DNA from: Myxococcota bacterium
GTDB taxonomy: Bacteria; Myxococcota_A; UBA796; CAJQPC01
Length of the DNA stretch: 64,000 nt
NCBI GenBank assembly: GCA_036012755.1
Contig: DASCPX010000016.1
Coordinates: 160,001 to 224,000, forward strand
Reading direction: 5' to 3'
The notes beneath the pieces were generated by a model that saw only the letters and a list, made by a program, of their open reading frames with translations, ran no database searches and was not told the DNA's origin. Every line of letters begins with the position of its first letter. Position 1 is the stretch's first letter. Positions 38,757 to 53,674 of this stretch are shown here, piece by piece. A program made the position numbers and the translations under genes.

Positions 38757-40051
38757 TGCAGTCCGACCGGGAGGTACCAGAGCGTGAGCGGGATCGCGAG
38801 GGCCAGGGTGACCAACAGCGCCGCCAGGCGCCAGCCGCGGATCGCAGACCCGGGCGCCGCGAGGAAGCCAGCGGTCCAGATCAGCCAGAGCCCGTCGAGC
38901 GGGACGCGGAAGCGGGTCGTGCCCAGGAGCACCGCGACCACGGCGCAGTGGTAGAGCACGATCAAGAGCGTGATGGGGAAGAGCCAGCTCCGACCCCGAG
39001 CGAAGGCGCCGACGCTGCCTCCCCAGACGGTGAGCAGGGAGAACCCGATCGTGCCGAGGCAGAGGAACTCGGCGACAGGCGCGGGCAGACCCTTGTAGCG
39101 CCCGGCTCGGACCTTGCGCGTGAGGAAGCTGTTGGGGTTGAAGAGGAAGGCCTCGCGCTGGGGGATCCGGCGCAGGAACTCCGCTGGGTTGTCCCGGATC
39201 CAGCCCAGCGCCGTGTCACGCTGGCAGTCCGCCCACTCGGTCCTGGGGAGCTCGATGTCGCACATCGGTCGGCCGGTGGCGGTGATTCGCCTGAACTCGG
39301 CGGTGCTCTGGCTGAGCCCGTGGTCCCAGGTGATCAGCGGGAAGTCGTTGTTGCTCAGCCACAGGTTGTGACCGAGGGTGGTGTCCGTGATGACCACGCC
39401 GCCGAACTTCTTGCTGGCGTAGATCGAGTAGGGCGCGACGGTGAGGATCGCGACGAGCGCCATGGCGCCGGCTTGTCGCCATTGCCTTCGTGGCACGAAG
39501 GCCAGCATGAAGATCGGGAGCAGGTATGTGGCGACCCCCCGCAGGAGCACCGACAGGCCGATGAGCAGGCCCGCCAACAGTGCCCACCGCCAGGATCGAT
39601 CCCGGGCCAGGCCGATGGTGTAGAGCGTTCCCAAGAGCAGCGTCAGGTAGATGGACTCGGTCCAGAGGTGACCGGCGAAGAAGGCCAGGGTGGGGCTCAG
39701 CGCGTAGAGCCACGCGGCGATGCGTCCGGCGCGCAGATCCAGGTGGTCCCGGGCCAACAGGTAGACGAGGACCTGCGCGACGCCGAAGCCGACGACCTGT
39801 GTGACGAGGCCCACGTCTGCCCAGCCGGAGAGCACCTCGTGGGCCGCGAGGAAGGTCACGTAGCCCGGGGCCCAGACGTAGGGGATGAAGGTGTCGGCGG
39901 TCATGCCCTCGCCTGCCGCCATGCGGTGGGCGAGCTGCAGGTAGGAGCACTCGTCCCTGGTGCAGGGCACGTCCCACCAGAAGATGAAGGGGAAGGCACG
40001 GAGCACCAGCCCGACCACCAGCGAGGCCAGGAGCCAGCGGTCGCGCCTCAC
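38753..40051 (-). CDS. ArnT/PMT-like (GT39/GT83) membrane glycosyltransferase
   Basis: DE..Y..LA in first loop; PGY; WTES; multiple TMs; TRFRVP. Confidence 0.8.
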   Translation of the reverse strand: MRRDRWLLASLVVGLVLRAFPFIFWWDVPCTRDECSYLQLAHRMAAGEGMTADTFIPYVWAPGYVTFLAAHEVLSGWADVGLVTQVVGFGVAQVLVYLLARDHLDLRAGRIAAWLYALSPTLAFFAGHLWTESIYLTLLLGTLYTIGLARDRSWRWALLAGLLIGLSVLLRGVATYLLPIFMLAFVPRRQWRQAGAMALVAILTVAPYSIYASKKFGGVVITDTTLGHNLWLSNNDFPLITWDHGLSQSTAEFRRITATGRPMCDIELPRTEWADCQRDTALGWIRDNPAEFLRRIPQREAFLFNPNSFLTRKVRAGRYKGLPAPVAEFLCLGTIGFSLLTVWGGSVGAFARGRSWLFPITLLIVLYHCAVVAVLLGTTRFRVPLDGLWLIWTAGFLAAPGSAIRGWRLAALLVTLALAIPLTLWYLPVGLQ

Positions 40052-40521
40052 TTCTCGAGGCGTTCCTCGAGCTCGGCCAGGCGAGCACGGAGCGCGTCCA
40101 GCTCGTCATCCGAGGCGCGGAGTGGCGGCTCGGGATCGGGCTCCGGGGCGTCGGGGGCGCGGGGGGCCTGCTGTCCGGGCCTGAGCATCGCCTCGACCTG
40201 GTCCATCTGGGCGGAGACCAGGGCCAGGCCTGTCGTGAGCTGCTCGCGCAGCATCGCCTGCCAGGGATCGTCGCCGGTGGACCGGATCATGCGGTGGAGC
40301 ATCGAGGTCGGGATCAGCTCGGCGCCGCCAAGGGACTTCAGCACCACCTCGCCGAGGACCTGGGGCGTCAGGTCCTCTTCGGTCTTTGCGTCCACCACCT
40401 GCACCGTCGTCCCCTCGCGGATCATCGCCGCGAGCTCCTCGAGGTTCAGGTACCTCGAGGCCGAGGTGTCATAGAGGCGCCTGTTGCCATATTTCTTGAT
40501 GGTGACCACGATCGACGACAT
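40048..40521 (-). CDS. phaR: PHA synthesis regulator (PhaR-type DNA-binding domain)
   Basis: IKKYGNRRLYDTSASRYLNLEEL..MI..G..VQVVDAKTEEDLT..VL. Confidence 0.9.
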   Translation of the reverse strand: MSSIVVTIKKYGNRRLYDTSASRYLNLEELAAMIREGTTVQVVDAKTEEDLTPQVLGEVVLKSLGGAELIPTSMLHRMIRSTGDDPWQAMLREQLTTGLALVSAQMDQVEAMLRPGQQAPRAPDAPEPDPEPPLRASDDELDALRARLAELEERLEK

Positions 40522-40771: not shown

Positions 40772-41437
40772 ATGCCCTTCGCGCTCAGCGGCGACTGCCA
40801 CATCTACTGGACCGCCATCGGTCGCGGCCCGCCCATCGTGCTGGTCCGCGGACTCGCCCGCTCCCACCGCTACTTCGAGCCGATCGTCCCGTACCTGGCC
40901 CGCTACTTCCGGGTGATCCTCTTCGACAACCGCGGCTCGGGGCGCTCCGATCGCCCTGCGGGTCCCTACTCCTCGGACCAGATGGCGGATGACGTCGTGG
41001 CGGTCATGGACGCTGCTGGCGCTCGAAGTGCCTGGATCCTCGGCATGTCACTCGGCGGCATGATCGCGCTGGATACGGCTCGGCGCCATCCCCGTCGGGT
41101 GAGCGGGCTCGTGCTCGGATCGTGCACGGCGCGGGGCCGTGGCTACCCGACTCGCGTCCCGCTCTGGCCGAAGCTCCTGCTGGCGATCAGCGCGCTCTTG
41201 CCTCGCTCGATGGGGCGCCGCGTCCAGGCCTTCGTGACCCTGAGCGATGCCTTCATGGACCGCGCCGAGCTCGAGATCGTCGCCGACTGTGGCCACAACA
41301 TCGAGACCGAGCAGCTTGGCTGGATGGCCCGCCGCGTCCTGGTCTTCGTGGACACCCACGCGTCCGAGGCGCCCTACGCCAACCAGGCCCCAGCGAGGAC
41401 GACAGGTACGCTCAAGACTGCGCCGATCGCCAGGTAG
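40772..41437 (+). CDS. Alpha/beta hydrolase (candidate intracellular depolymerase), apparently internally deleted
   Basis: FDNRGSGRS; lipase box GMSLGG; His motif CGH; lid and catalytic-Asp strand are missing between AFMD and RAELEIV. Confidence 0.7.
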   Translation: MPFALSGDCHIYWTAIGRGPPIVLVRGLARSHRYFEPIVPYLARYFRVILFDNRGSGRSDRPAGPYSSDQMADDVVAVMDAAGARSAWILGMSLGGMIALDTARRHPRRVSGLVLGSCTARGRGYPTRVPLWPKLLLAISALLPRSMGRRVQAFVTLSDAFMDRAELEIVADCGHNIETEQLGWMARRVLVFVDTHASEAPYANQAPARTTGTLKTAPIAR

Positions 41438-41781
41438 AGCGGCTTGTCGTGGCGCTGCCTCCCCATGACGAGGGCGGCCAGGGGGCCGAGCACCGCGAAA
41501 GCTGCGCCAGCGACGGCCAGGTCAGCTCCCTGGGGGAGCATCGTGCCTGCGTAGAAGGTGCCCGCCCAGCTCAGCGCCAGTGCCGCCACCGAGGTCACGA
41601 GGCAGCGCAGGGTCGGCCCCAGCGGGAAGAAGGCTGGCACCATGCCCACGACGAGTCCGCCGGCGAGTCCGAAGAAGAAGCCCGCGAACAAGAGCCAGGG
41701 CGAGACGGCGGCGAGTCCGAGGGCTCCGACGATGGAGCCGATGGCCGCCATCCAGGCCGCTGTTCGTTCGGGGGTGCGCAT
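41374..41781 (-). CDS. Small 4-TM membrane protein
   Basis: MRTPERTAAW...; four hydrophobic segments. Confidence 0.65.
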   Translation of the reverse strand: MRTPERTAAWMAAIGSIVGALGLAAVSPWLLFAGFFFGLAGGLVVGMVPAFFPLGPTLRCLVTSVAALALSWAGTFYAGTMLPQGADLAVAGAAFAVLGPLAALVMGRQRHDKPLYLAIGAVLSVPVVLAGAWLA

Positions 41782-41845
41782 CGCGAGCGCATGGTCCCAC
41801 GCGGATGTGCAGGAGCTGTGCAACTCGATCACGCGGCCAGTTTTT

Positions 41846-41882
41846 TGCGTTGCAACAAGAAAGTCCTTGTTGCAACGCAGCA
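41846..41882. promoter_or_regulatory. Candidate PhaR operator: perfect 14-bp inverted repeat with two TGC-N3-GCA boxes
   Basis: TGCGTTGCAACAAG-aaagtc-CTTGTTGCAACGCA, about 40 nt upstream of the phasin-like gene. Confidence 0.78.
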
Positions 41883-41919
41883 TCCTTCTTATGTTGTGGA
41901 CGTCAAACAAGGAGACGGC

Positions 41920-42090
41920 ATGTTCGAGACCGAGCAGTACCAGGATGCGGCGGAGCGCTACTTCGCCCTTCAGAACGAGTCCATCAAGGTGGCGATGAAG
42001 CAGTGGGAGACCACTATGGAGGCGCAGAAGGCCATGACGAAGGCCCTGCTCGCTGCCTCCTGGGCTTCCAAGCCCGAGGCGACGTCCTGA
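41920..42090 (+). CDS. 56-aa phasin-like amphipathic helical protein
   Basis: AAGGAG RBS; MFETEQYQDAAERYFALQNESIKVAMKQWETTMEAQKAMTKALLAA; first gene after the PhaR-like operator. Confidence 0.7.
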   Translation: MFETEQYQDAAERYFALQNESIKVAMKQWETTMEAQKAMTKALLAASWASKPEATS

Positions 42091-42098
42091 GTCCGCTG

Positions 42099-42128
42099 AC
42101 GCAGCAGGGGATCGTCCCTGCTGCGTTT
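42099..42128 (+). terminator. GC-rich hairpin after the phasin-like gene (leaky terminator or mRNA stabiliser)
   Basis: ACGCAGCAGGG-gatcgt-CCCTGCTGCGT, perfect 11-bp stem with only a short T run. Confidence 0.65.
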
Positions 42129-42174
42129 GCACATCCGATTTGACGCATTGCGGCATCTGGAGTAGAGAGAGACC

Positions 42175-42639
42175 ATGAGCGACACCGAGATGTACAAGGC
42201 CTGGGAGAAGGCCATGACCCAGTGGTGGGACACCGTGCTGGACTCCCCTGCCTTCGTGAAGGGCATGGGGCAGGGTCTCGCCGGCCACAGCAGGACCCGG
42301 AAGGCCTACGAGGATCACCTCGACCGGAACATGGAGGCCATGCACCTCCCCACGCGAAAGGACCTCGTCCGCGTCGCGAAGATCTGCAGCCTCCTCGAAG
42401 ATCGGCTGCTCGGGTTGGAGGACCGCCTGCTGGAGCTCGAGGATCAGCGCGTCGAGGCCGAGAAGCTCTCCCTCCAGGCGCGCATCGACGCCGCCGAGGC
42501 TCGGCTGGAGCTGAAGGGCCGCCTCTCGTCGATCGAGGCGAAGCTCGACGCGGCGCTCGCTACAAAGGCCGCCCCGAAGGCCAAGGCTGCGCCGAAGGCC
42601 GCCTCCACGAAGCGCAAGGCTCCGGCGAAGAAGAAGTGA
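42175..42639 (+). CDS. phaE: PHA synthase accessory subunit (PhaE / class IV PhaR-like) with Lys/Ala-rich tail
   Basis: W...WW..L.SPAF...MG; LPTRKDL...LEDRL coiled coil; KAAPKAKAAPK tail; TGATG-coupled to phaC. Confidence 0.75.
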   Translation: MSDTEMYKAWEKAMTQWWDTVLDSPAFVKGMGQGLAGHSRTRKAYEDHLDRNMEAMHLPTRKDLVRVAKICSLLEDRLLGLEDRLLELEDQRVEAEKLSLQARIDAAEARLELKGRLSSIEAKLDAALATKAAPKAKAAPKAASTKRKAPAKKK

Positions 42640-43571
42640 TGTTGCAGCGCGCCATCGACGCGGCCGCTTTCCTCGCTACGGATCCGATCGGCCAGGCGCG
42701 ACCAGGCGCCTCGCCACACACCGTGATCCACTCTCAGGCCTCCGCGAAGCTGCGCTTCTTCGCCTCCACCGGCCGGCGCGCCCTCTTCGTGTGCATGCCG
42801 CTGATCAACACGTGGACGATCTGGGACCTGCTCCCTGGACACAGCGTGGTCGCGGCCCTGGTCGATGCGGGCATCGACGTCTACGTGCTCGACTGGGGCA
42901 AGCCCGGCCCGGAGGCCGAGGATCGTCCCCTGGACCACTACGTCGACGAGATCCTCGGGCGGGCGCTGGACAGGGCTCGCCGCCACGCTGGCACCACCCT
43001 CGACGTTGCTGGTTACTGCGTCGGGGGCACCTTCCTGGCCTGGCACCTGGCGCGGAATCGGCCCGAGGTGCGCTCCGCTGCCTTCGTGGCGACCCCGATC
43101 GACTTCCACGCCTCCGGGCGCCTTTCACGCTGGGCCGACCCGGCCCACTTCCCGCTGGATGCCCTCCACGGCAACTTCCCAGCGGAGCGCCTGCGCGCGA
43201 GCTTCGCCTGGCTGAAGCCGATGGGTCAGGCTCGGAAGTGGAGGTCGCTCTTGGAGCGACCGCAGGCCCGCGAGCTCTGGGCGCACCTCGAGTCCTGGTC
43301 CCGTGACGGCGTGGACTTCCCGGGGCGCGCCTACCGCGAGTACGTGCGTGCCTGCTACTTCGACAACCGCCTCCGCGAGGAGCTCGGTGGTGTCGACGTG
43401 CCTGCTCTGAGCGTCGCCGCGAGCCGGGACCACATCGTGCCTCCGCCGGCCGCGCACGACCTCTCGGCGGTCTGGGACGGCCCGGTCACCGAGAGGACGC
43501 TGCGTGGTGGCCACGTCGGCATCTGCCTCGAGAAGGCGCTGCCAGCGGCGCTGTCGGAGTGGCTCTCGTGA
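42639..43571 (+). CDS. phaC: Class III-type PHA synthase catalytic subunit (copy 1)
   Basis: PLIN...DL.PG.S.V..L..AG.DVY.LDWG; GYCVGG; PIDF; RDHIVP; GGHVG. Confidence 0.82.
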   Translation: MLQRAIDAAAFLATDPIGQARPGASPHTVIHSQASAKLRFFASTGRRALFVCMPLINTWTIWDLLPGHSVVAALVDAGIDVYVLDWGKPGPEAEDRPLDHYVDEILGRALDRARRHAGTTLDVAGYCVGGTFLAWHLARNRPEVRSAAFVATPIDFHASGRLSRWADPAHFPLDALHGNFPAERLRASFAWLKPMGQARKWRSLLERPQARELWAHLESWSRDGVDFPGRAYREYVRACYFDNRLREELGGVDVPALSVAASRDHIVPPPAAHDLSAVWDGPVTERTLRGGHVGICLEKALPAALSEWLS

Positions 43572-44539
43572 TCGCGGAGATGTCTCGCGGTGCCTGGCTC
43601 CTCGCGAGCCACCCACGGCCGCCCGTCGGGCAGAGCGCCCACAGGGTGATCCACGTCCACGACAAGCTGCGGGTCCGCTTCTACGCCGGCGCCGGGGCCT
43701 GCCCCATCGTCATCGTCCCGAGCCTCATCAACCGAGCGTGGATCGTCGACCTCGAAGAAGATCGGAGCCTCGTGCGGGCCCTGACCGAAGAGGGCCACCC
43801 GGTCTACCTCGTCGACTGGGGCGTGCCCGGCCCGGAAGACGCTGACGAGGACGTCGCCTACGTGCTCGACTCACTGCTCGCGCGGGCCCTGCGTCGCATC
43901 CGCCGACACGCGAGGGCTCCGGTGTGCCTGCTCGGCTACTGCATGGGCGGCACCCTGGCGGCGATGTGCTTGGCCCGGCATCCAGGCCTCGCGGAGCGGC
44001 TCGTCCTGCTGAACGCCCCCTTCCGCTTTTGCGAGGGTGGGCGCTTCTTCGACCTCTGTCGCGATCTCGACGTCGAGGCGCTGATCGACAGCGACGGCCT
44101 CGTGCCGGTCGAGCTCATGAAGCCCGCCTTCTCGATGCTCGACCCAGCCGGCAACTTCACGAAGCTCGTCGCGATCGAAGAGGCCAGCCGGGACCCTCGC
44201 CGCATGCTCCGCACGATGGCTCGCGAGCGCTGGCTCGAAGAGAACGTGCCCATGCCAGGGGCCTTCGCGCGGGAGTGGATCCGCCACACCTACCAGGACG
44301 ACGATCTGCTCGATGGCGCCTGGGTGATCGGGGACTCCGCTGTCGACCTGGCCGCGCTGGACCACCCCACCTTGGTGCTCGCCGCCGAGCGCGACTTCAT
44401 CGCGCCTGTCGCCAGCGTGCTCCCCGTCGCGGAGGTCATCCCGGGGGCCACCGTAGAGGTCCTCCCGACCGGTCACATCGGCGCGGTGGTCGGGCGCTAC
44501 CTCCCGCGGCTGGTCCAGAGGATCCACTCGTGGCTCTGA
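43568..44539 (+). CDS. phaC: Class III-type PHA synthase catalytic subunit (copy 2)
   Basis: PSLINRAWIVDLEEDRSLV; LVDWG; GYCMGG; ERWL; ERDFIAP; TGHIG; GTGA-coupled. Confidence 0.87.
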   Translation: MIAEMSRGAWLLASHPRPPVGQSAHRVIHVHDKLRVRFYAGAGACPIVIVPSLINRAWIVDLEEDRSLVRALTEEGHPVYLVDWGVPGPEDADEDVAYVLDSLLARALRRIRRHARAPVCLLGYCMGGTLAAMCLARHPGLAERLVLLNAPFRFCEGGRFFDLCRDLDVEALIDSDGLVPVELMKPAFSMLDPAGNFTKLVAIEEASRDPRRMLRTMARERWLEENVPMPGAFAREWIRHTYQDDDLLDGAWVIGDSAVDLAALDHPTLVLAAERDFIAPVASVLPVAEVIPGATVEVLPTGHIGAVVGRYLPRLVQRIHSWL

Positions 44540-45903
44540 GCTGGGCGCTGTTCCTCGTCTACGCGGTGCTGACGGCGCTGTTGGCCTGGAGAGGTGGGCG
44601 GCAGTCGTCCACCGGCGCGGGCTTCGCCATCGGCAGCGGGCGCATGTCCTGGTGGGTCGCCGGCATCACCCTGGGTGCTTGCCTGGCGTCCTCTGCCACC
44701 TTCGTCATCGTGCCCGGCTTCGTGTACTCGGAGGGGCTCCCGGCGCTCGTCGGCTTCACCGCCCCCTTCATCGCCGGCATCGCGCTCGGGCTCTTCGTCT
44801 TCACGGGCCCCTTCAAGGAGCGCACGCGAGGTGCCCTCACGGTGCCCCACTGGCTCGGCGAGCGCTACGACAGCCCCGCCCTGCGCAAGCTCTTCGCCGG
44901 GCTCAACGTGCTCAACGTCGCCTACCTCGTGCTCATCACGGTCGGCTGTGGCTACGTGATGCAAGCGGCGCTGGGGGTGCCCTACCCCGTGGCCGTGGTC
45001 GGCATCGTGGCCTTCGTCTTCGGCTACACGGGCTTCGGCGGCGCCGGGGCTCATGCCCTGACCAACACCCTGCAGGGCATCGTGATGCTCGTGGTCGCCG
45101 TGGTCATCGCCTCGGCGGGCCTCGATCAGCTCGGCGTCACCTGGCAGAGCCTGGCCTCGACCGGCTGGACGGCACCGGACAGCCTGCTCTTCTCCACCCC
45201 CGGCGAGGTCTGGCTCGTGCCCTTCTTCATGGGCATCGCGCTGACCACCCAGCCCCACCTGCTGTGCAAGGCGCTCTACGTCGCCGACCGGGCTGCGGTG
45301 CGCAAGATGGTGGTCGTCGCGATCCTGTGCTTCGCGGTCTTCAGCCTCGTGCTGCTCGCTGGCGCCCACGCCCGCGTGGTGCTCCCAGAGGGCATCGCCC
45401 AGGACCAGGTCATGGCCACCTACCTCGTCGAGGCCTTCCCCTGGAAGCCCCTGTCCGCCCTGGTCAGCGTGGCGATCCTCGCCGCCAGCATGAGCACCCT
45501 GGACGGTCTCCTCGTCGCCATCGCCGCCAGCGTCGGCGGTGACCTCTTCGAGCGCCCCTCGGTCTCCCGCAACCGGCTCGTGCTCGCCGGGCTCGCGGTC
45601 GTGACGGTCGCCATCGCCCTGTCACCTCCGCAGCTCGTGCTGATCCTCGGTCAGCTCGGTGTCTATGGCCTCGTCGCGGCCTCCGCGGGCCCCTTGCTCG
45701 CCGGACTCTTCAGGGATGGCCGCCTCCACGCCGTCCCGGCGCTGTGCTCGGCCATCGTGGCCTTGATCGTGCACTTCGGTCTCGCGCTCACGGTCTTCGA
45801 CAACCCGGGCCTGGCAGCCTGCGCCGCGGTGGCGGTCGGAATACCGATCGCGCTGTTGCCCGTGCCTGCGCTGTCGGCGGCACCCAAGAGGGAGAAGGCG
45901 TGA
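44530..45903 (+). CDS. Sodium:solute symporter family protein
   Basis: SSATF...PG; LTVPHWLGERYDS; YTGFGG....TNTLQG; AASMSTLDG; about 13 TMs. Confidence 0.9.
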   Translation: MALSWALFLVYAVLTALLAWRGGRQSSTGAGFAIGSGRMSWWVAGITLGACLASSATFVIVPGFVYSEGLPALVGFTAPFIAGIALGLFVFTGPFKERTRGALTVPHWLGERYDSPALRKLFAGLNVLNVAYLVLITVGCGYVMQAALGVPYPVAVVGIVAFVFGYTGFGGAGAHALTNTLQGIVMLVVAVVIASAGLDQLGVTWQSLASTGWTAPDSLLFSTPGEVWLVPFFMGIALTTQPHLLCKALYVADRAAVRKMVVVAILCFAVFSLVLLAGAHARVVLPEGIAQDQVMATYLVEAFPWKPLSALVSVAILAASMSTLDGLLVAIAASVGGDLFERPSVSRNRLVLAGLAVVTVAIALSPPQLVLILGQLGVYGLVAASAGPLLAGLFRDGRLHAVPALCSAIVALIVHFGLALTVFDNPGLAACAAVAVGIPIALLPVPALSAAPKREKA

Positions 45904-47225
45904 GCTGGACCGGAGACCACCAGGGACTCGCGCTCTCGGATCAGCGGCGGAGCTGGACCTATTCCCAGCTCCGGGACGAGGCCGCGCGCTGGGCCGGCAC
46001 CCTCGCGGCCCGCGGCGTCGAGGCAGGAGACCGCGTGGCGCTGCTCGCCAGGAACCGCGGCGAGTTCATCGTCCTGCTGCTTTCCTGCGAGCACCTCGGC
46101 GCGATCTTCCAGCCGATGAACTGGAGGCTGTCCGAGGCAGAGCTCGACTGGCAGATCGCGGACTCGACCCCCCGAGTCGTGCTGCGCGACGCGGACCTCG
46201 ACGAGGGCCCCGGCGACGCGGCGATCCGCGGTGACGAGCGCGCCGAGACCGAGCCCTGGATGCTGCTCTACACCTCTGGCACGACCGGCAAGCCGAAGGG
46301 AGCCCTGATCACTCACGGGCAGGTCCGGGCCAACGCCGCGGTCACCCTCGGGGCCTGCGAGCTGACCGCCGAGGACAGCACGCTGACCTTCACGCCCCTG
46401 TTCCACACCGGCGGCCTGAACTGCCTCACGACGCCGCTGTTGCGCGTCGGTGGTCACGTGGTCCTGCGCCCCTCTCTGGAGGACGCGCTTGATGTCATCC
46501 GGGACGAGGGCATCACGCTGTTGACCGGCGTGCCGACGATCTACCAGTTCCTCTCCGAGCGTCCCGGCTTCTCCGAGGCGATGGGTTCTGTTCGGGACGC
46601 CCTCTGCGGCGGGGCCCCGCTGTCGCTGACGCTGCTCCAGACCTACCTCGAGCTCGGCATCCCGCTGCGGCAGGGCTTCGGCCTCACGGAGGTGGGGCCC
46701 AACTGCTTCTCCACGCCACCGCAGCGCGTGCGCGAGAAGCTCGGGACCGTCGGTCGACTCGTGCCCGGGCTGGAGGCCCGCCTCGTCGACGGCGAGCTTC
46801 AGCTGCGCGGCCCGATGGTCTTCGGCGGCTACTGGGGCCACCCTCCCCACGAGGGCTGGTTTCACACCGGCGACGTCCTGCAGGTCGACGACGAGGGCTT
46901 CTGGTCCGTCACAGGGCGCAAGAAGGAGATGTTCATCTCCGGCGGAGAGAACGTCTACCCGGCCGAGGTCGAGGCAGCGCTCTATGCCTGCGGCGGCATC
47001 GCCCAGTGCGCGGTCATCGGCGTGGAGGACGAGCGCTGGGGCGAGGTCGGACGAGCCTTCGTCGAGCCCAGTCCGGGGGCGACGCTCTCGCCAGAGGCTC
47101 TCCACGGTGCCCTCCAAGGACGCCTGGCCCGCTACAAGCAGCCCAAGCGCATCGAGGTGCTGGCTTCGCTGCCCCGCACTCCCAGCGGCAAGATCGACAA
47201 GCAGCGACTCGGAGAGATGCCGTGA
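45900..47225 (+). CDS. Acyl-CoA synthetase (AMP-binding, FadK/MenE-like)
   Basis: YTSGTTGKPKG; PLFHTGG; QGFGLTE; FHTGD; GRKKEMFISGGENVYPAEVE; SGKIDK. Confidence 0.92.
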   Translation: MSWTGDHQGLALSDQRRSWTYSQLRDEAARWAGTLAARGVEAGDRVALLARNRGEFIVLLLSCEHLGAIFQPMNWRLSEAELDWQIADSTPRVVLRDADLDEGPGDAAIRGDERAETEPWMLLYTSGTTGKPKGALITHGQVRANAAVTLGACELTAEDSTLTFTPLFHTGGLNCLTTPLLRVGGHVVLRPSLEDALDVIRDEGITLLTGVPTIYQFLSERPGFSEAMGSVRDALCGGAPLSLTLLQTYLELGIPLRQGFGLTEVGPNCFSTPPQRVREKLGTVGRLVPGLEARLVDGELQLRGPMVFGGYWGHPPHEGWFHTGDVLQVDDEGFWSVTGRKKEMFISGGENVYPAEVEAALYACGGIAQCAVIGVEDERWGEVGRAFVEPSPGATLSPEALHGALQGRLARYKQPKRIEVLASLPRTPSGKIDKQRLGEMP

Positions 47226-47704
47226 TCCTGCTCCTTCTGGCCTGCCTTCCAGAGGATGTCGCGCTCGACGACTCCGTCCCGGTCCTCGACGACACCGCCG
47301 CCGCGAGCACCGAGCCCCTCTACGGCCAGTGGATCTCCGACGGAGCGGACATCAGCCCGCTGTTTTCCGGCGCACCCTTCGAGTACCTGAGCATCGACGC
47401 TGTCTTCGGGGACGAGGGCTACGAGGTGGTCGGCCACACGGCAGACGACGACTACACCTTCGCCGGGACCTTCACGATCGACACCTCGAGCACTCCAGCC
47501 TCGATCGAGCTCATCCAGACCCAGCCCGGAAACGCCGTGGCCCGGGGCATCTACCTCGTCGAGGACGAGGTGCTCACCTACGAGGTCGTCCAGGTCGAGC
47601 CGGACTATGGCTACGCGCCCCCGACCCCGGAGGAGGGCTTCGGCTCCACCACCGGCCCCAACCTCTCAGAGGGCGACAACGTGCAGGTCTACCGCAGACC
47701 GTGA
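47222..47704 (+). CDS. Small beta-rich (lipocalin-like?) lipoprotein
   Basis: GTGA-coupled; MILLLLAC; LYGQW motif; beta-strand pattern. Confidence 0.7.
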   Translation: MILLLLACLPEDVALDDSVPVLDDTAAASTEPLYGQWISDGADISPLFSGAPFEYLSIDAVFGDEGYEVVGHTADDDYTFAGTFTIDTSSTPASIELIQTQPGNAVARGIYLVEDEVLTYEVVQVEPDYGYAPPTPEEGFGSTTGPNLSEGDNVQVYRRP

Positions 47705-49119
47705 TCTGGATCTGTGCCGCATTCGCGCGAGAGCCGGTCGAGGCCCTGAGGCCCGTCGAGGAGCCCCCGGATGTGGGCCTCGACTTCGTGGGGCTCGCCC
47801 AGGTCAAGACCTCGGGCACGAACGTGGCCACCACGAACGCCTTCCTCGATGGGCAGGTCATCGGCGTGATCGACGGGGACTCGGGCGCAGACGCCGGGGA
47901 CTCCCTGAGCCACTTCAGCGAACAGCGCGTGGCGGCTTTTCTGGGCTACCGTCCGCCGCTGTTGGATGGCCACGCGGCCCTTCACGGCGGCTTCGAGATC
48001 GACTTCGCCTTTGGAGACGCCGCCTACGGCATCGGGGGCAACACCGGCGGCGGCTTCGGCGGCGACCAGGTGAACCTCCAGACCCGCCGCCTCTACGTCG
48101 AGGTCGACAGCCAGCTCTTGCGACACGAGCAGGACTGGAGGGTGGGCCTGCACTTCGTGAGCGACGGCGTCGGACTCCCGGAGGAGGGCCTCGACGCCAT
48201 CTTCCGCAGCGGAGCACGCGGCACGGTCTTTGCCAGCGAGGCAGCCGGCGCCTCGCTCCACGGGCAGCTCCCCGAGCGCTTGCGATACAGGCTCGGGGTC
48301 TACAAGCTCGTCGAGAACGCCAGCTCGCAGCCGGACGACGTCACCCTGGGCATGGGGGATGTCGAGCTGCAACCCGGCTGGCGCACGCGGGTGGGCCTGC
48401 ACGCCTGGTACCTGCGAGATCGCTCGGATGGCCAGGGCGGCGCCCTGGGCGTGGGGCCTTCATCCTCGACCTCGGCGCTCCAGGGGGGCCCCTCTCTGGA
48501 CGTCGATGGGGACGTAGACGTCACCTGGCTGGGGGCCGACGCCGGCTGGAACGCGGACCTGCGCCGCGGTGACCTCGGAGCCCACGGCGTCGCCTTGGCT
48601 CACCTCGGCTCCCTCGGCGACGTCGACGCCCAGGGCTTCAGCGCCAACGGCGAGGCCCGCTGGCGTTGGACCGCGGGCAAGGGCAGCGTGCTCCGGGCAG
48701 AGGTCCTCTATGCCACTGGCGATTCCGTGTCTGATGTCGGCTACACCGGCGTCCTCACCGGAAACACCTGGGGCATCGCGGGGGCCAACCACACCACCCA
48801 CGGCACCCTGTTGCTGCACCCGGATCTCTTCTCTATCAACCGCCAGGTGAGCCACACCGGCGACCTGGCGGCCTCTGGGCGGGGCCAGCTCAGCTTCACC
48901 GGGTCACTGGGCTACGACCCCGTCCCAGACCGCCTGACCGTCCAGTTCGGCGGTGGTCACGCGAGCTATGGCGGCGGGACCTCGGCCCAGGAGATCAACC
49001 TCCGGGTGCTCGGCGAGCCCTACCTGTTCATGCGGACCGGTCTCTCCGGCGCCTACCTCGCGAGGCCGGGCACGGACGCCTGGATCGTCTACGCCTCCTT
49101 CGACTGGCTGGTGATCTGA
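47701..49119 (+). CDS. Putative outer-membrane beta-barrel (porin/channel)
   Basis: GTGA-coupled; MIWICAAFA; amphipathic strands; FEIDFAFGD...NLQTRRLY; aromatic-rich end YASFDWLVI. Confidence 0.72.
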   Translation: MIWICAAFAREPVEALRPVEEPPDVGLDFVGLAQVKTSGTNVATTNAFLDGQVIGVIDGDSGADAGDSLSHFSEQRVAAFLGYRPPLLDGHAALHGGFEIDFAFGDAAYGIGGNTGGGFGGDQVNLQTRRLYVEVDSQLLRHEQDWRVGLHFVSDGVGLPEEGLDAIFRSGARGTVFASEAAGASLHGQLPERLRYRLGVYKLVENASSQPDDVTLGMGDVELQPGWRTRVGLHAWYLRDRSDGQGGALGVGPSSSTSALQGGPSLDVDGDVDVTWLGADAGWNADLRRGDLGAHGVALAHLGSLGDVDAQGFSANGEARWRWTAGKGSVLRAEVLYATGDSVSDVGYTGVLTGNTWGIAGANHTTHGTLLLHPDLFSINRQVSHTGDLAASGRGQLSFTGSLGYDPVPDRLTVQFGGGHASYGGGTSAQEINLRVLGEPYLFMRTGLSGAYLARPGTDAWIVYASFDWLVI

Positions 49120-50048
49120 TGCCCCTGAACGCCTTGTTCTTCGGCCTGGCCTGCGCGCCCCGGTATGGCTCCGCGCCACCGCTGGCGCCATCCGAGCTCC
49201 ACGCGCCCCTCCCCGTGTCCCACGTCGATCTCGACGGTGTCCGTGTCGCCTACGCGAGCGCAGGGGAAGGCACGGCCCTGGTCTTCCTGCACGGCCTGTC
49301 CTCCTACATGGGCTACTGGGAGCACCAGCTCCCACACTTCGCACAGTCCCACCAGGTCTTCGCGCTCGACCTCCCGGGCTACGGGATGTCGTCACGCCCG
49401 GACGCGCCCTACACGCCTCCCTGGTTCGCCCAGACGGTGGTGGACTGGATGGACGAGGTGGGCTTGTCCTCAGCGGTCTTCGTGGGCCACTCGATGGGCG
49501 GACAGGTCGCCCTGACCCTCGCGCTCGAGCACCCAGAGCGTGTAGACGCCCTCGTGCTCGCTGCCCCCGCCGGAATCGAGACCTTCTCTCCGGGCGCCGC
49601 TGACTGGATGAAGGGCTGGTGGACCGAGTCCAGGGCCATGGAGTCCACGGAAGAGGACATCCGCGCCACGATGACCACCATGGTGTTCAACGTCCACGAC
49701 GAGGGCGTCGAGCGGCTCATCGAGGAGCGGGTTCGGCTGGGTCGTCACGAGGACTTCGGCGGCACCTCGGTGGCCGTCTCCCGCAGCATCGCGGGCATGC
49801 TCGACCACCCGGTCGCCGGGCGCCTGTCCGAGGTCTCCGCCCCGACGCTCATCGTCTTCGGCGAGGACGATCGCATGATCCCGAACCCGGTCTTCACCGG
49901 CGGCCGCACCTCGGCCATCGCGAAGCAGGGGCAGCGGTCCATTCCGGGCTCCTCGCTGGTCCTGGTCCCGAGGGCCGGCCACACCGTGCACCACGACGAC
50001 CCCGGCGCATTCAACGACGCAGTCGAGCGCTTCCTGGAGGGCCTGTGA
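49119..50048 (+). CDS. Alpha/beta hydrolase lipoprotein
   Basis: FFGLAC; FLHGL; DLPGYG; GHSMGG; GEDDRMIP; AGH. Confidence 0.88.
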   Translation: MPLNALFFGLACAPRYGSAPPLAPSELHAPLPVSHVDLDGVRVAYASAGEGTALVFLHGLSSYMGYWEHQLPHFAQSHQVFALDLPGYGMSSRPDAPYTPPWFAQTVVDWMDEVGLSSAVFVGHSMGGQVALTLALEHPERVDALVLAAPAGIETFSPGAADWMKGWWTESRAMESTEEDIRATMTTMVFNVHDEGVERLIEERVRLGRHEDFGGTSVAVSRSIAGMLDHPVAGRLSEVSAPTLIVFGEDDRMIPNPVFTGGRTSAIAKQGQRSIPGSSLVLVPRAGHTVHHDDPGAFNDAVERFLEGL

Positions 50049-51721
50049 TCTGGATCGCGACCGCGCTGGCGACCACCGACTTCACCGGTACGCCCGTCAC
50101 CACCTACACCGGCGAGGAGACCTTCCTCCAGGACGGCTCCGTGCAGCTGTGGGGGCAGATCGAGCTCCACGAAGACGGAGACCGCCTGCTGTTTGTGCAA
50201 GAGGACTTCAACGACTCGCTGGAGTGGCCAGCGGACAGCGACTGGGCTCCGTGGATCCACCAGATGTTCGGCACGGGGGACCCTCACTCCTCGAACTTCC
50301 TGCTGCACTCGGCCCCGCTGGAGCCCATCTCGGAGGGCACGCCCATCCTGCTCGTCCCCGGGGCCGGAGACAACGGCAGCCGTGGCTTCATCGTGATGGC
50401 CTCGCGCCTGGACGGCAGCGGGCGGCCCGTGTTCGTCCTGACCTTCGCCCACCCCCACGGCGATGTCTTCATGCAGGCCGAGATCGTAGCGGATGCCATC
50501 GAGCGCATCAGACAGCGGCGAGGCGTCTCCCAGGTCGACGTGGTAGGCCACAGCAAGGGAGCCATCGCCGCCGCCGTCTACGCCAGCAACCACTCTTCGG
50601 CCTCCTGGCCGAGCAGCGCCTATGAGCAGGTCGGGACCGAATATGCGAACGATATTCGCCGGTTCGTTGCGATCGGTGCTCCCCTGGACGGCATCGACAC
50701 CGCCTACCGGTGGCCGGCCCAGAACTGGCTCTCTCTGGAGAGCGACGAGGCCTTCTCGCCCTCGTCCTGGAGCACCTACTACCCCTACACGACTGCCAAC
50801 CTGTACGTGACGCAGGACCTCTCCGAGCAGGACCACCTCTCTGATGGGGGCGACCTCTTTCCAGGCCACCGCCAGCTGCTTCGGCGCCAGGCGCACGCCC
50901 TGCCGGGTGAGTCCTTCCTCGGTCCGTACTCGGTCCAGCAGGACTGGTACACGACCTACGAGGGCGGCCTTGGCTACGTCAGCTGGAGCGAGGGCATCGA
51001 CGCGGCCATCGACGACGCCGGCGACTTGCTGGCGGCGCTCGAGGAAAACGGCGTCGATCCAGAGGTCGAGCTCTTCGTGCTCGCCGGAGAGAACCCGCTC
51101 TTGCACAACGGCGCTGAGTACCAGTGGATCGCAGCCTTTGGAGAGAGCTGGGTGGACGTGGCCACCGCTGGCCTCGACGCGTGGGCCGAGCTGCTGGCAG
51201 AGGCCGCGGAGGAGGCTGGAGTCGTGGACATCGACCCGGACGAGCTCCGTGGGCTGGTGCAGGGCAAGCTCGTGCTCGGCGAGATCAGCGGGCCCTCCGA
51301 CGGCCTGGTGTTCCTCTCCAGCGCGACGCGGGTCGAGACCCTCACCGGCCGAGGAGCGAGCGTCGGAGAGCTCCGCGTGGTCGACCTGGCCCACCTCGAT
51401 CTGCTCTATGCCTCTGAGATCACCGGACAGATCCTCATCGACGCCGGCGAGGCCGATCCAACGGAGGACGGCTGGATGCGGGCCGTCGGCGAGCGGTATG
51501 TCGAGGCGGACACCCTCGGCTGGGTCGAGACGGTCCTCGCCGATCCCGACACCGACGAACCCGACATCGACGACACGGGGTTCGTCGAGGACGACGACCC
51601 TGGCGATCCGGACGGCTCCGGGCGCCTTGCCCGCAACTGTGATGGATGCGCCAGCGGCACCGGGGCCCTCGGCGCGGCCTGGCTGGGGCTCCTGGTGCTG
51701 CGGAGGAGACGATGGAGTTGA
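50045..51721 (+). CDS. Secreted lipase/esterase-like hydrolase with MYXO-CTERM-like sorting tail
   Basis: MIWIATALA; PILLVPG; VGHSKG; SDGLV; AHLDL; C-terminus CDGCASG...WLGLLVLRRRR. Confidence 0.8.
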   Translation: MIWIATALATTDFTGTPVTTYTGEETFLQDGSVQLWGQIELHEDGDRLLFVQEDFNDSLEWPADSDWAPWIHQMFGTGDPHSSNFLLHSAPLEPISEGTPILLVPGAGDNGSRGFIVMASRLDGSGRPVFVLTFAHPHGDVFMQAEIVADAIERIRQRRGVSQVDVVGHSKGAIAAAVYASNHSSASWPSSAYEQVGTEYANDIRRFVAIGAPLDGIDTAYRWPAQNWLSLESDEAFSPSSWSTYYPYTTANLYVTQDLSEQDHLSDGGDLFPGHRQLLRRQAHALPGESFLGPYSVQQDWYTTYEGGLGYVSWSEGIDAAIDDAGDLLAALEENGVDPEVELFVLAGENPLLHNGAEYQWIAAFGESWVDVATAGLDAWAELLAEAAEEAGVVDIDPDELRGLVQGKLVLGEISGPSDGLVFLSSATRVETLTGRGASVGELRVVDLAHLDLLYASEITGQILIDAGEADPTEDGWMRAVGERYVEADTLGWVETVLADPDTDEPDIDDTGFVEDDDPGDPDGSGRLARNCDGCASGTGALGAAWLGLLVLRRRRWS

Positions 51722-52437
51722 GGGACGTCCGAGCGCTGGTGACCGGCGGCGCCAGCGGCATGGGGGCGCACTTCGTCGAGCGGCTCGGGGACGAAGGAGC
51801 CGGAGTCTTCTCCTGCGATATCCAGCCCTTGGACGGCGGGACCGTGGCGGACGTCTCCAGCGAGGAAGACGTGACCCGCTTGTTCCTGGAGGCCGAAGCG
51901 GCTCTGGGCGGGCCGGTGAACCTGCTCGTCAACAACGCCGGGATCATCCGGGACGGCCTGCTCGTCAAGCGCGATCGCGACACGGGAGAGCTCTCGACCA
52001 TGTCGACGACGAAGTGGCAGCAGGTCCTCGACGTGAACCTCACTGGCCCCTTCCTGTGCATGCGGGAGTTCGCTCGGCGGGCCATCGAGAGCGAGACGAA
52101 GCCGGGCCTCGCCGTCAACATGTCCTCCATCAGCCGGGCGGGGAACCCTGGCCAGAGCAACTACGCCGCCGCGAAGGCTGGCCTCGTCGCCGACACCGTG
52201 CTGTGGGCCAGGGAGTTGGCTCGGTACGGACTGCGGGTCGTCGCCATCGCCCCCGGCTTCGTGCGCACGCCGATGGTCGAGTCGATGCCGCCCCAGGCCC
52301 TCGAGCGCGCCCTGAAGCCCGTACCGATGCGTCGCCTCGGCGAGCCGGAGGAGATCTGGACTGCTCTTCGCTTCTGCATCGAGTGCAGCTACTTCACGGG
52401 CCGCGTGGTCGAAGTCGACGGCGGACTTCGCCTATAA
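51712..52437 (+). CDS. SDR, 3-oxoacyl reductase (FabG/PhaB-like)
   Basis: TGGASGMG; NNAGIIRDG; NMSS; GQSNYAAAK; IAPGF. Confidence 0.88.
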   Translation: MELRDVRALVTGGASGMGAHFVERLGDEGAGVFSCDIQPLDGGTVADVSSEEDVTRLFLEAEAALGGPVNLLVNNAGIIRDGLLVKRDRDTGELSTMSTTKWQQVLDVNLTGPFLCMREFARRAIESETKPGLAVNMSSISRAGNPGQSNYAAAKAGLVADTVLWARELARYGLRVVAIAPGFVRTPMVESMPPQALERALKPVPMRRLGEPEEIWTALRFCIECSYFTGRVVEVDGGLRL

Positions 52438-52441
52438 CAGG

Positions 52442-53674
52442 TCAATATTGCTCGATGTTTTCATCGATCCAGGCCAGGCGCGCGGGGATCCACTCCCGGA
52501 TCTTCTCAACCTCTGCGTCGTAGTCTTCGACCACGGGCAGGTAGCCTCCGAGGAAGTCGATGTCGTCCCAGACCCAGACCTCGAAGTTCTCGTAGGCGGC
52601 GTCACCGAGGAGCTCGCGCTGGGCCTCGAAGCGCGCCAGGGCTGCCTCGTCGGACAGCGTGCCCTCGCGGAGCTCGAACCAGCGCGCCGCCAGGGCCTCT
52701 GAGAAGCCCTCTGCGCTGGTCATCCTCGCCACCCACGTCGGTCTGTACAGGATCCAGCCGGTCGGCACGACGTTGTCGTTGTAGGTCGGCTGGCCGAAGG
52801 TGAGGTCGAGGTCCCAGGGGGTGAAGGCCATCAGGCCGGAGGCGTCCCGCCACAGGTGCACGCTCAGGTAGTAGGCGTCGTTGTTCTTCATGAACTCCTG
52901 CAAGAGCACGAAGTCGATCGCCGAGTCCCGATCGAGCACGTCGAAGATGGCGTCGGGATCGTCCAGGATCGCCGCCTGCCAGGAGGCGAGGATCTGTTGG
53001 ATGGCGCTGATCTCCTCGGTGGTCGGCGCCTCTGGGTGGACGGGCGCCCAGGTGCCGAAGCCGACAGCGTCGTTCGGGTAGATCCCGCCCTGGTCGTCGA
53101 GCTTCAGCACGAAGCCCTCTTCGTCGATGTCGATGCGGGCGGCGTCCCGCTTGACCCGCTCGACCAGGAAGTAGATGCCCCAGTCGGCTCCGTCCAGGCG
53201 CAGCTGGCAGGTGCGGCTCTCTGGCCCGTAGTGCTCGGGGCTCCAGTCCTGGTACAGATCGTAGCCGTACTTGTTCCGCGTCAGGGCCCGGTCGATCCAG
53301 GCACCGTTGAGCACCCAGTCGCTCTCTGCGCCCATGCCGAAGAGATCGACCTCGAGGGCCTCTCCGTCCCTGCGCAGCTCGACGGCGTACTGCTTCTTCG
53401 GGAAGCCAGAAGAGCTCCGCCCGCGGATCTCGACCCCTGCCTCCCCGTCGAAGAGCACGAGCCCCTCGGCGTCGGCGATCTCGAGATCACAGTCGATCTT
53501 CGGCTCGTCGGGGATCGCCTGTCCGCAGTCCAGCTCGATGCGGCAGATGCCCTCCGCGACGCCCGGGACGTCCTCGACTCCGCTGTCGTCCGGGTCCTCG
53601 ATGGGGATGGAGTCGGAGTCCACCGGCAGCGAGGGCACGCTCGGGTCGGTGCAGGACAACAAGGCGAGGACCAT
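52442..53674 (-). CDS. CotH kinase family lipoprotein
   Basis: MVLALLSC; IRGRSS..FPKKQY; ESDWVL; DRALTRN; G.Y..VE; KNND; PWDLDLTFG. Confidence 0.88.
   Translation of the reverse strand: MVLALLSCTDPSVPSLPVDSDSIPIEDPDDSGVEDVPGVAEGICRIELDCGQAIPDEPKIDCDLEIADAEGLVLFDGEAGVEIRGRSSSGFPKKQYAVELRRDGEALEVDLFGMGAESDWVLNGAWIDRALTRNKYGYDLYQDWSPEHYGPESRTCQLRLDGADWGIYFLVERVKRDAARIDIDEEGFVLKLDDQGGIYPNDAVGFGTWAPVHPEAPTTEEISAIQQILASWQAAILDDPDAIFDVLDRDSAIDFVLLQEFMKNNDAYYLSVHLWRDASGLMAFTPWDLDLTFGQPTYNDNVVPTGWILYRPTWVARMTSAEGFSEALAARWFELREGTLSDEAALARFEAQRELLGDAAYENFEVWVWDDIDFLGGYLPVVEDYDAEVEKIREWIPARLAWIDENIEQY

Follow-up and report, generated by a model that had tools for sequence, protein, structure and literature searches.

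The DNA considered here is a 64,000-nucleotide stretch (hereafter the window) of a Myxococcota bacterium (GenBank assembly GCA_036012755.1, contig DASCPX010000016.1, positions 160,001 to 224,000), in which ten plus-strand open reading frames (ORFs) at 42175-52437 join polyhydroxyalkanoate (PHA) synthase genes to genes for an acyl-coenzyme A (CoA) ligase, a symporter, an outer-membrane channel and two exported hydrolases. The ten ORFs have a third-position G+C content (GC3) of 0.87-0.93 and overlap at all nine junctions, five of them by GTGA, two by TGATG and two by 10 nt (phaC2/symporter and tailed hydrolase/dehydrogenase). A preliminary description of this DNA, made from its letters alone, had listed the same ten overlapping genes from phaE to the dehydrogenase, and their list and order are confirmed by the ORFs, GC3, junctions and family scans. 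The reading that we favor, and regard as somewhat probable, is that of a PhaR-controlled operon which scavenges external short-chain PHA (poly(3-hydroxybutyrate), PHB, of lysed or preyed-on cells) and stores it again. The genes are as follows.

42175-42639, plus strand: short PhaE/PhaR(Bmeg)-like synthase subunit of 154 aa with a Lys/Ala-rich tail, recognized by weak profile matches
42639-43571, plus strand: PhaC1, class III-like synthase, accessory paralogue (GYCVGG, DHIVP, GHVG)
43568-44539, plus strand: PhaC2, class III-like synthase, core paralogue (GYCMGG, DFIAP, GHIG)
44530-45903, plus strand: sodium:solute symporter (SSS), inner-membrane importer, accessory in Myxococcota (PF00474, 105 bits)
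45900-47225, plus strand: acyl-CoA ligase of a module-specific subfamily (PF00501, PF13193; FHTGG[L/W]N ... TEVGPN)
47222-47704, plus strand: small lipoprotein of an unnamed family, weakly lipocalin-like (LLAC lipobox by eye)
47701-49119, plus strand: predicted outer-membrane beta-barrel channel of an unnamed family, 18 long strands (AlphaFold2 pLDDT, the predicted local distance difference test, 90.8)
49119-50048, plus strand: alpha/beta-hydrolase lipoprotein (GHSMG), candidate oligomer hydrolase (GLAC lipobox by eye)
50045-51721, plus strand: tailed hydrolase (exported, lipase fold, acidic linker, MYXO-CTERM-like tail) from an unnamed family, candidate PHA depolymerase of the cell surface (GHSKG; fold; linkage)
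51712-52437, plus strand: FabG/PRK08217-like short-chain dehydrogenase/reductase (SDR), candidate (R)-3-hydroxyacyl-CoA dehydrogenase/reductase, accessory (NF006072, 268 bits; cut-off 298)

Conserved synteny had been proposed as a check on whether the uptake and hydrolase genes belong with the PHA genes, and the barrel, lipoprotein, ligase and both hydrolases do keep their linkage to phaEC and phaR throughout the order and outside it. Counts were taken from 78 named barrel loci, 45 of them with at least 7 kb upstream and 57 with at least 4.5 kb downstream, gene presence downstream of the barrel being counted at a minimum of 40% identity; the Myxococcota locus sets come from one overlapping collection and are hence not added together, related genomes are not independent, and the related records are metagenome-assembled genomes throughout. 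Upstream of the barrel (45 loci), the lipoprotein was present in all 45, the ligase in 38, a phaC2-type gene in 36, phaE in 35, phaR in 31, phaC1 in 26 and the symporter in 4; downstream (57 loci), the lipoprotein hydrolase directly follows the barrel in 55 (the remaining two show 36-39% identity), 50 loci have the tailed hydrolase and 11 have the SDR. These counts therefore define a Myxococcota core of phaR, phaE, phaC, ligase, lipoprotein, barrel, lipoprotein hydrolase and tailed hydrolase, and the symporter, the SDR and phaC1 are accessory. Among 41 related genomes the barrel was found in 23 and a PhaC2 orthologue in 24, all 23 barrel genomes having PhaC2 and the extra genome being 73% complete; phaC2 lies no more than 5 kb from the barrel in 18 of the 20 relative loci fetched (of 23), one of the others being cut by a contig end and one split. 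More widely, the barrel family occurs in 40 of 301 sampled Myxococcota genomes (13%), and phaC adjoins the barrel in 5 of 13 loci from distant families, in differing gene order. Records titled Klebsiella, Bifidobacterium, Enterobacterales and Cognaticolwellia (L048, L064, L066, L079 and others) also hold the operon, and their titles look like submitter mislabels.

The candidate for the first attack on an external polymer is the tailed hydrolase, whose S170, D419 and H450 are invariant in 119 sequences. Its end, judged by eye as were the signal peptides and lipoboxes of the window proteins, consists of C-x-x-C, a hydrophobic stretch and RRRR, and the same pattern occurs in 91 of 120 homologues; the window tail matches neither TIGR03901 nor TIGR03382, and among 40 homologues tested, 5 score above the cut-off of one or the other. 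According to PMC11980579, MYXO-CTERM proteins are sorted to the cell surface. The family is present in 50 of the 301 Myxococcota genomes, 35 with and 15 without the barrel, and at 19 loci away from the barrel phaR and/or phaC adjoin it in 14 of 14 close and 2 of 5 distant homologues. Shorter relatives amount to 13 matches, mostly contig-end fragments. At several loci of barrel-less genomes (L257-L261, L263, L264), a divergent PhaC-like gene, 28-33% identical to a class III-like PhaC, lies directly or a few genes after the tailed hydrolase.

A barrel without the tailed hydrolase was found in 5 of the 301 genomes, and all five hold a gene of the type-1 extracellular PHB-depolymerase family in the barrel cluster. 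Three of these replacement genes score above the NF050058 cut-off of 150 bits (L156 274, L161 260, L159 172); those of L153 and L154 fall below it and exceed the TIGR01840 cut-off of 108 with 154 and 150 bits, and both close with an acidic linker plus a MYXO-CTERM-like tail, as does the window hydrolase. The metagenome locus L183 shows the same depolymerase-barrel-hydrolase order, and in genome G136 (8 Mb) the sole depolymerase match over the cut-off, out of 14 matches at E<=1e-8, touches the barrel. As a control, a type-1 depolymerase-family gene was found in none of 20 and none of 78 other barrel loci. At L154 the gene at L154:3783-5018 was rejected as the depolymerase, the depolymerase-family gene being the next one, L154:2443-3687. 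The window genome itself holds one NF050058 match, barely over the cut-off, on another contig. We take this exchange of a depolymerase for the tailed hydrolase, with moderate confidence, as the best evidence that external PHB is scavenged into storage.

The barrel and its small lipoprotein would provide the passage through the outer membrane. The predicted barrel model has the 18-strand architecture of Occ/OprD channels, and its conserved side chains are largely polar. In structure comparison it aligned with AlgE at Z 25.9 (root-mean-square deviation, rmsd, 3.1; 341 residues aligned; 14% identity), with OpdQ at Z 24.4 and with OccD2 at Z 24.2, the Occ/OprD channels overall lying at Z 22-24 with 6-12% identity, so that the likeness to them is at the level of the fold only. 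The predicted fold does not tell import from export. No Pfam or NCBIfam model matched the window barrel and no Pfam model its close family, and PF13372 or porin models were touched by far relatives only; identification as the alginate exporter AlgE was rejected because the window barrel has no PF13372 match and alginate genes are absent from the recurring neighbors. In the lipoprotein family (107 members), Lipocalin_4 was matched at E<=0.05 by 8 members and DUF5004 by 12, with an Atlas lead of 0.83; no relative of solved structure was found (best E 0.012). A complex prediction for barrel and lipoprotein scored 0.00, its controls also not being folded, and carries no weight either way.

At the storage end, the PhaE-like subunit matched TIGR02132 (E 1e-4) and TIGR01834 (E 3e-4; 21 bits against a cut-off of 155), both far below cut-off. 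The Cys, Asp and His of PhaC1 are intact in 31 of 31 sequences; PhaC2 keeps its Cys and Asp in 50 of 50 and its His in 49 of 50, the exception being due to a truncated sequence. The paralogues form two old clades in a tree (quick version) and are the only class III-type PhaC matches in the window genome. On sequence grounds, both appear to work like class III/IV synthases; since they score below the class III cut-off (TIGR01836, 147 and 182 bits against 365), they are described as class III/IV-like in working and not filed as members. The preliminary description had remarked that the cluster has no phaA, and no thiolase is indeed found there; the remark is uninformative, as four thiolases above cut-off are encoded elsewhere in the same genome, and it was dropped as an argument. 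A profile search of the window genome found no BdhA or PhaB above cut-off, with which a CoA-ligase route for 3-hydroxybutyrate (3HB) fits.

The ligase that would serve this route carries the motifs FHTGG[L/W]N and TEVGPN, which in a 48-row subsample are mostly common to the module ligases of Myxococcota and Bacteroidota and are not shared by Fcs (the root of the ligase tree, a FastTree run on a subsample, is unreliable). Relative to its orthologues the window ligase is short by 40-60 aa, and it carries RANAAVT in place of the [HF]WNA[VI]NT found in most. The SDR was rejected as a PhaB acetoacetyl-CoA reductase since it scores below the cut-offs (TIGR01829, 142 against 302; NF042966, 128 against 436).

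A related module exists in Bacteroidota, where the barrel family was found in 34 of 401 sampled genomes (8%). The usual order (34 loci, some missing genes reflecting contig ends) is a regulator (25), FabG (31), a protein resembling beta-ketoacyl-acyl carrier protein synthase III (KAS III-like; 31), an SSS (22) or major facilitator superfamily (MFS; 8) carrier, the ligase (33), MaoC (6), the lipoprotein (32), the barrel and the hydrolase (33). The preliminary description had counted the symporter and the SDR as operon parts, which holds poorly in Myxococcota (4 of 45 and 11 of 57) and well in the Bacteroidota module (22 and 31 of 34); their recurrence there marks them as true parts of an uptake line and argues for import over export. 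Its phrase of a PHA operon fused to an uptake line describes Myxococcota correctly and does not extend to Bacteroidota, where the line stands free and PhaC is almost never present (1 of 34), so that the fusion to storage is a Myxococcota feature.

The KAS III-like protein merits separate description. In 32 module copies the His of FabH is replaced by Thr, Met or Leu and the Asn by Tyr, and the canonical FabH copies of the window genome keep HQAN and GNT; identity as FabH was rejected since the Cys-His-Asn triad is incomplete, and without this His and Asn the protein is unlikely to be a decarboxylating synthase. We hypothesize that it may be a thioester transferase able to thiolyse oligomer-CoA. 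The window genome lacks it and has canonical FabH copies only. The His/Asn-less family (L177:3901-4887, L088:12375-13361, L154:11860-12837, L157:12354-13289, L252:9989-10996) is found in Bacteroidota, in some Myxococcota and on a Chloroflexota plasmid, in the company of FabG, hydrolases and either ligases or CoA transferases, its Myxococcota loci being mostly those where phaC is absent. Two genomes with an adjacent thiolase have a further KAS III-fold gene, bearing a CC motif, inserted in the module (L224:10671-11690, L226:8316-9335), and a 470-aa helical protein of no clear family (weak TPR match) lies in or beside the Bacteroidota module (L114:5082-6503, L177:7860-9284, L228:5837-7228, L251:17222-18658). 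A plasmid of the cultured Chondrinema litorale WSW3-B12 (L251:11177-21365) carries fabG, the KAS III-like gene and genes for symporter, ligase and hydrolase, behind which lies one for a TonB-dependent receptor; a barrel homologue was not found in the stretch fetched.

The regulation of the window operon is suggested by features upstream of phaE, among which the divergent phaR and the two PhaR-type boxes had been overlooked in the preliminary description.

40048-40521, minus strand: PhaR, PHB-sensing repressor, divergent from the operon (PF07879, 84 bits; cut-off 25)
41840-41885, no strand: 15-pair inverted repeat, candidate PhaR operator before the phasin-like gene
41920-42090, plus strand: 56-aa phasin-like protein (GC3 0.89)
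42095-42130, plus strand: strong RNA hairpin, possible terminator or stabilizer without a U tract, between the phasin-like gene and phaE
42138-42158, no strand: exact full PhaR motif match, overlapping a TTGACG -35-like hexamer, 17 nt before phaE

PhaR scores 81 bits with TIGR01848, below its cut-off of 109. The motif used is that of S. meliloti, as given in passages of PMC12542648. The exact full motif matches once in 64 kb, at 42138-42158, against 0.08 expected (7 of 100 shuffles reach one match). The inverted repeat contains two YGCRNYGCR cores, at 41846-41854 and 41871-41879, and its part at 41840-41860 matches the full motif with one mismatch; in the window, full motifs with one mismatch (3 against 2.1 expected) are not above chance and the short core (49 against 63 expected) is unenriched, so that only position, exact match and conservation carry weight. 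As to conservation, 31 of 36 related phaR-phaE spacers contain TGC-N3-GCA, at four times the background rate, and 17 of 36 contain TTGACGCA. A sigma-70 consensus scan gave 0 sites. A phaR gene and a YGCRNYGCR box with AT-rich arms at the promoter, the marks of a PhaR regulon at sequence level, were both found, and we infer that the operon is under PhaR control.

On the basis of the genes, their families and folds, the catalytic residues, linkage, the replacement pattern and the operator-like boxes, we infer the substrates, the direction of transport, co-transcription and a predatory source in the following scheme. The tailed surface hydrolase would cut PHB to 3HB oligomers, which would pass the 18-strand channel, perhaps aided by the lipoprotein, and would be trimmed in the periplasm by the GHSMG lipoprotein hydrolase. 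The resulting acid would be imported by the symporter, or by another carrier where it is absent, and the ligase would convert it to (R)-3-hydroxybutyryl-CoA, which PhaE with PhaC1/C2, whose triads are intact, could polymerize directly, without PhaA or PhaB; alternatively, the SDR could oxidize it to acetoacetyl-CoA for thiolases encoded elsewhere. In Bacteroidota, the same uptake line would be purely catabolic, with FabG and the His/Asn-less KAS III-like protein in place of PhaEC. Scavenging of an external polyester into storage, already proposed in the preliminary description, gains support from the linkage, the association of the hydrolase with pha genes and the depolymerase replacement, with PHB as the presumed substrate. 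Precedent comes from passages of PMC4834554, in which two depolymerases of Bdellovibrio degrade prey PHA, the medium-chain-length (mcl) enzyme mainly to dimers and trimers, and of PMC7460792, in which Bradymonas builds PHA granules during predation.

Several observations weigh against this scheme, and some of them open rival explanations. Since the five replacement cases derive from just two families, they amount to roughly two independent events. Of 45 Myxococcota loci, 41 have no symporter. Among Bacteroidota, where the search covered class III PhaC and type-1 depolymerases, a class III PhaC occurs in 1 of the 34 genomes with the barrel against 8 of the 367 without it, and a type-1 depolymerase (E<=1e-40) in 5 of 34 against 21 of 367 (p 0.06, kin not being independent) and in none of the 34 barrel loci themselves; enrichment of either in barrel genomes is thus weak or none. 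A tighter tie of the tailed hydrolase to PhaZ7, sought by sequence and by fold, was not found: the hydrolase (Z 17.8 with PhaZ7 5mlx, rmsd 3.7, 235 aligned; Z 20.2 with BlEst2, rmsd 2.8, 233 aligned) is no nearer in fold to PhaZ7 than to ordinary lipases (Z ~20), and the PhaZ7 model NF050060 gave 14-29 bits in 40 of 40 homologues examined (of 120 listed) against a cut-off of 450, covering the nucleophile elbow only. NF050058 likewise did not match the tailed hydrolase, nor was it among the 25 best matches listed for the lipoprotein hydrolase. A further adverse point is that the Bradymonas authors, in passages of PMC7460792, ascribe that PHA to beta-oxidation of fatty acids.

The lipase-like fold, the Lipase_2-type neighbors of the tailed hydrolase and the Bradymonas attribution would all suit a general scavenging of lipids or esters, in which prey membrane lipids (phospholipid, lipid A, ornithine lipids) or other esters would yield fatty or 3-hydroxy fatty acids, the channel and the ligase would work in the manner of FadL-FadD, and PHA would arise from beta-oxidation intermediates via the FabG-like SDR or MaoC. 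A lipocalin-like lipoprotein, a ligase near long-chain ligase models and, among the 34 Bacteroidota loci, the presence of FabG (31) and MaoC (6), for the most part with no PHA gene at all, point the same way. We nevertheless hold this explanation to be unlikely, as a PHB-depolymerase-family gene replaces the missing hydrolase in five of five cases, acyl-CoA dehydrogenase and crotonase are absent from the recurring neighbors in the loci, and the barrel, with its largely polar conserved side chains, resembles AlgE and Occ channels for small polar acids. Class III PHA synthases, moreover, favor C3-C5 monomers.

The exporter AlgE as the closest fold match of the barrel also counts against uptake, and would accord with an export system in which a short PhaEC polyester leaves through the AlgE-like barrel and the hydrolases trim it or transfer it onto surface molecules; the two synthase paralogues and the PGAP1/LCAT-like acyltransferase clusters among the Atlas neighbors of the hydrolase could be fitted to it. 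The gap in Z between AlgE and the Occ channels (25.9 against 24.4) is small, however, and the identity to AlgE is 14%; 30 of 34 Bacteroidota loci pair the module with importers of the SSS or MFS type, and 33 of those 34 genomes have no class III synthase match. Export thus appears very improbable.

A last adverse point is that the nearest solved relative of the ligase is a feruloyl-CoA synthetase (288 bits). Together with the many plasmid matches to Rhizobium Fcs (37-38%) and the passage of aromatic acids through OccK channels, this could suggest the use of aromatic esters, with feruloyl esterases, an Occ-type channel and an Fcs-type ligase, the PHA genes adjoining for regulatory convenience. 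Identity as feruloyl-CoA synthetase was rejected because the pocket motifs differ (FHTGGLN/TEVGPN against FHAAALG/TEAAPG and FHTIGLI/SEAGTV) and ech is absent from the recurring neighbors; no enoyl-CoA hydratase/aldolase or aldehyde dehydrogenase recurs, unlike in the Rhizobium fcs locus, and we give aromatic ester use hardly any credence.

The turnover of the cell's own PHA is also conceivable, the exported hydrolases mobilizing or recapturing the cell's own polymer and leaked oligomers and the ligase closing the PHA cycle, with outside PHA playing a minor part; the 'intracellular' depolymerase of Rhodospirillum rubrum, which is reportedly periplasmic, would be an analogue. The tailed hydrolase follows phaR and phaC more tightly than it follows the barrel, which 15 of its 50 genomes lack, and PhaR control, as outlined in part of PMC12542648, would induce the hydrolase when PHB is already stored. 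Against this stand the surface destination of MYXO-CTERM proteins (PMC11980579), away from cytoplasmic granules, the extracellular depolymerase family of the replacement genes, and the 33 of 34 Bacteroidota genomes that keep the uptake module with no class III synthase found, so that such turnover seems quite improbable as the main function, and scavenging of external PHA remains the preferred reading.

The preliminary description's phasin-like gene is reasonable insofar as small Gln/Ala-rich ORFs precede phaE in 36 of 43 related loci (by a loose filter, several of the 22 printed ORFs being false calls), and lacks profile support, the 56-aa ORF at 41920-42090 having zero family matches in the Pfam and NCBIfam profiles. 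The hairpin at 42095-42130 has a folding energy of -27.7 kcal/mol (z -5), which 0 of 200 shuffles equaled. Between phaR and the operon, an alpha/beta-hydrolase gene at 40772-41437 (plus strand, 221 aa) looks internally shortened and possibly broken, its Pfam match ending at model position 136 of 245, and at 41374-41790 (minus strand), between phaR and the phasin-like gene, lies a small membrane protein without a family in the window genome only. At the other end, a CotH-kinase-family lipoprotein at 52442-53674 (minus strand), with three paralogues elsewhere in the genome, converges on the SDR with a 4-nt gap. These three genes, conserved in 0 of 45, 0 of 45 and 0 of 57 related loci, respectively, were excluded as operon parts. 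Directly downstream of phaR, at 37386-40051 (minus strand), are sulfatase and PMT_2 glycosyltransferase genes.

If the favored reading is correct, the locus would offer a named candidate channel, lipoprotein and oligomer hydrolase for the passage of PHB products through the outer membrane, a depolymerase family that profile surveys would miss and that matters for how bioplastics are turned over in water and sludge, another possible origin of the PHA built up by feeding myxobacterial predators, and a direct 3HB-to-polymer route of use in PHB recycling. A wider proposal, which is tentative and which we consider rather doubtful as a whole, is that of a polyester utilization locus spanning two phyla, the PHB counterpart of a polysaccharide utilization locus, with an oligomer channel family, new surface depolymerases, transfer of prey polymer into predator granules bypassing acetyl-CoA, and, in Bacteroidota, thiolysis by the KAS III-like protein of oligomers that are CoA-activated once, so that ester-bond energy is saved. 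The preliminary description was aware of no characterization of this architecture, and the literature searched likewise holds no description of it, of an oligomer channel or of the outer-membrane crossing of PHB breakdown products, although an earlier mention is possible, most subscription papers being beyond its coverage. In a term search of a 2025 review of PHA degradation (PMC11893044), neither 'uptake' nor 'transport' was found; Myxococcota carry predicted standard depolymerases according to passages of 10.1101/2020.05.08.085522.

Compared with known systems, the operon shares with secreted depolymerases (type-1 dPHAscl, PhaZ7 of Paucimonas lemoignei, Bd3709 and Bd2637 of Bdellovibrio) an exported serine hydrolase that would attack outside PHA, and type-1-family genes sit in the cluster of five related genomes. 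Unlike in those systems, the window enzyme belongs to an unnamed family, bears a putative surface-sorting tail and is co-encoded with a channel, a ligase and a synthase; as no BdhA was found in the window genome, the products seem destined for CoA esters and storage. Class III (PhaEC) and class IV (PhaRC) operons resemble it in their Cys-Asp-His synthases of ~320 aa, partner subunit, phasin-like gene, divergent phaR and PhaR-type operator, whereas the window has two sub-cut-off paralogues, a 154-aa partner, no phaA or phaB, and five to seven envelope or activation genes behind. The PHA cycle of Pseudomonas putida (PhaZ, acyl-CoA synthetase, PhaC) includes an acyl-CoA synthetase step by which the hydrolyzed monomer is re-activated to a CoA ester and polymerized again, as proposed here; that cycle is cytoplasmic and handles the cell's own mcl-PHA, whereas the window hydrolases are exported and a channel is included. 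With AlgE and Occ/OprD the barrel shares the 18-stranded architecture, and with FadL-FadD the channel-plus-ligase logic; it is set apart by 8-14% identity, the lack of a Pfam match, the fixed lipoprotein-barrel-hydrolase triad and the adjoining polyester genes. The OleABCD clusters for olefins and beta-lactones combine a KAS III-fold protein, an alpha/beta hydrolase, an adenylating ligase and an SDR, as does the Bacteroidota form of the module, in which, unlike in OleABCD, a classical FabG serves as the SDR, a channel and importers belong to the set, no Ole model is among the best NCBIfam matches listed, and the KAS III-like protein has C/TQ-N/GY-GS where FabH has C/HQAN/GNT. Extracellular PHA utilization is already known, and what appears new here is three unnamed protein families and a link to storage of which no description was found.

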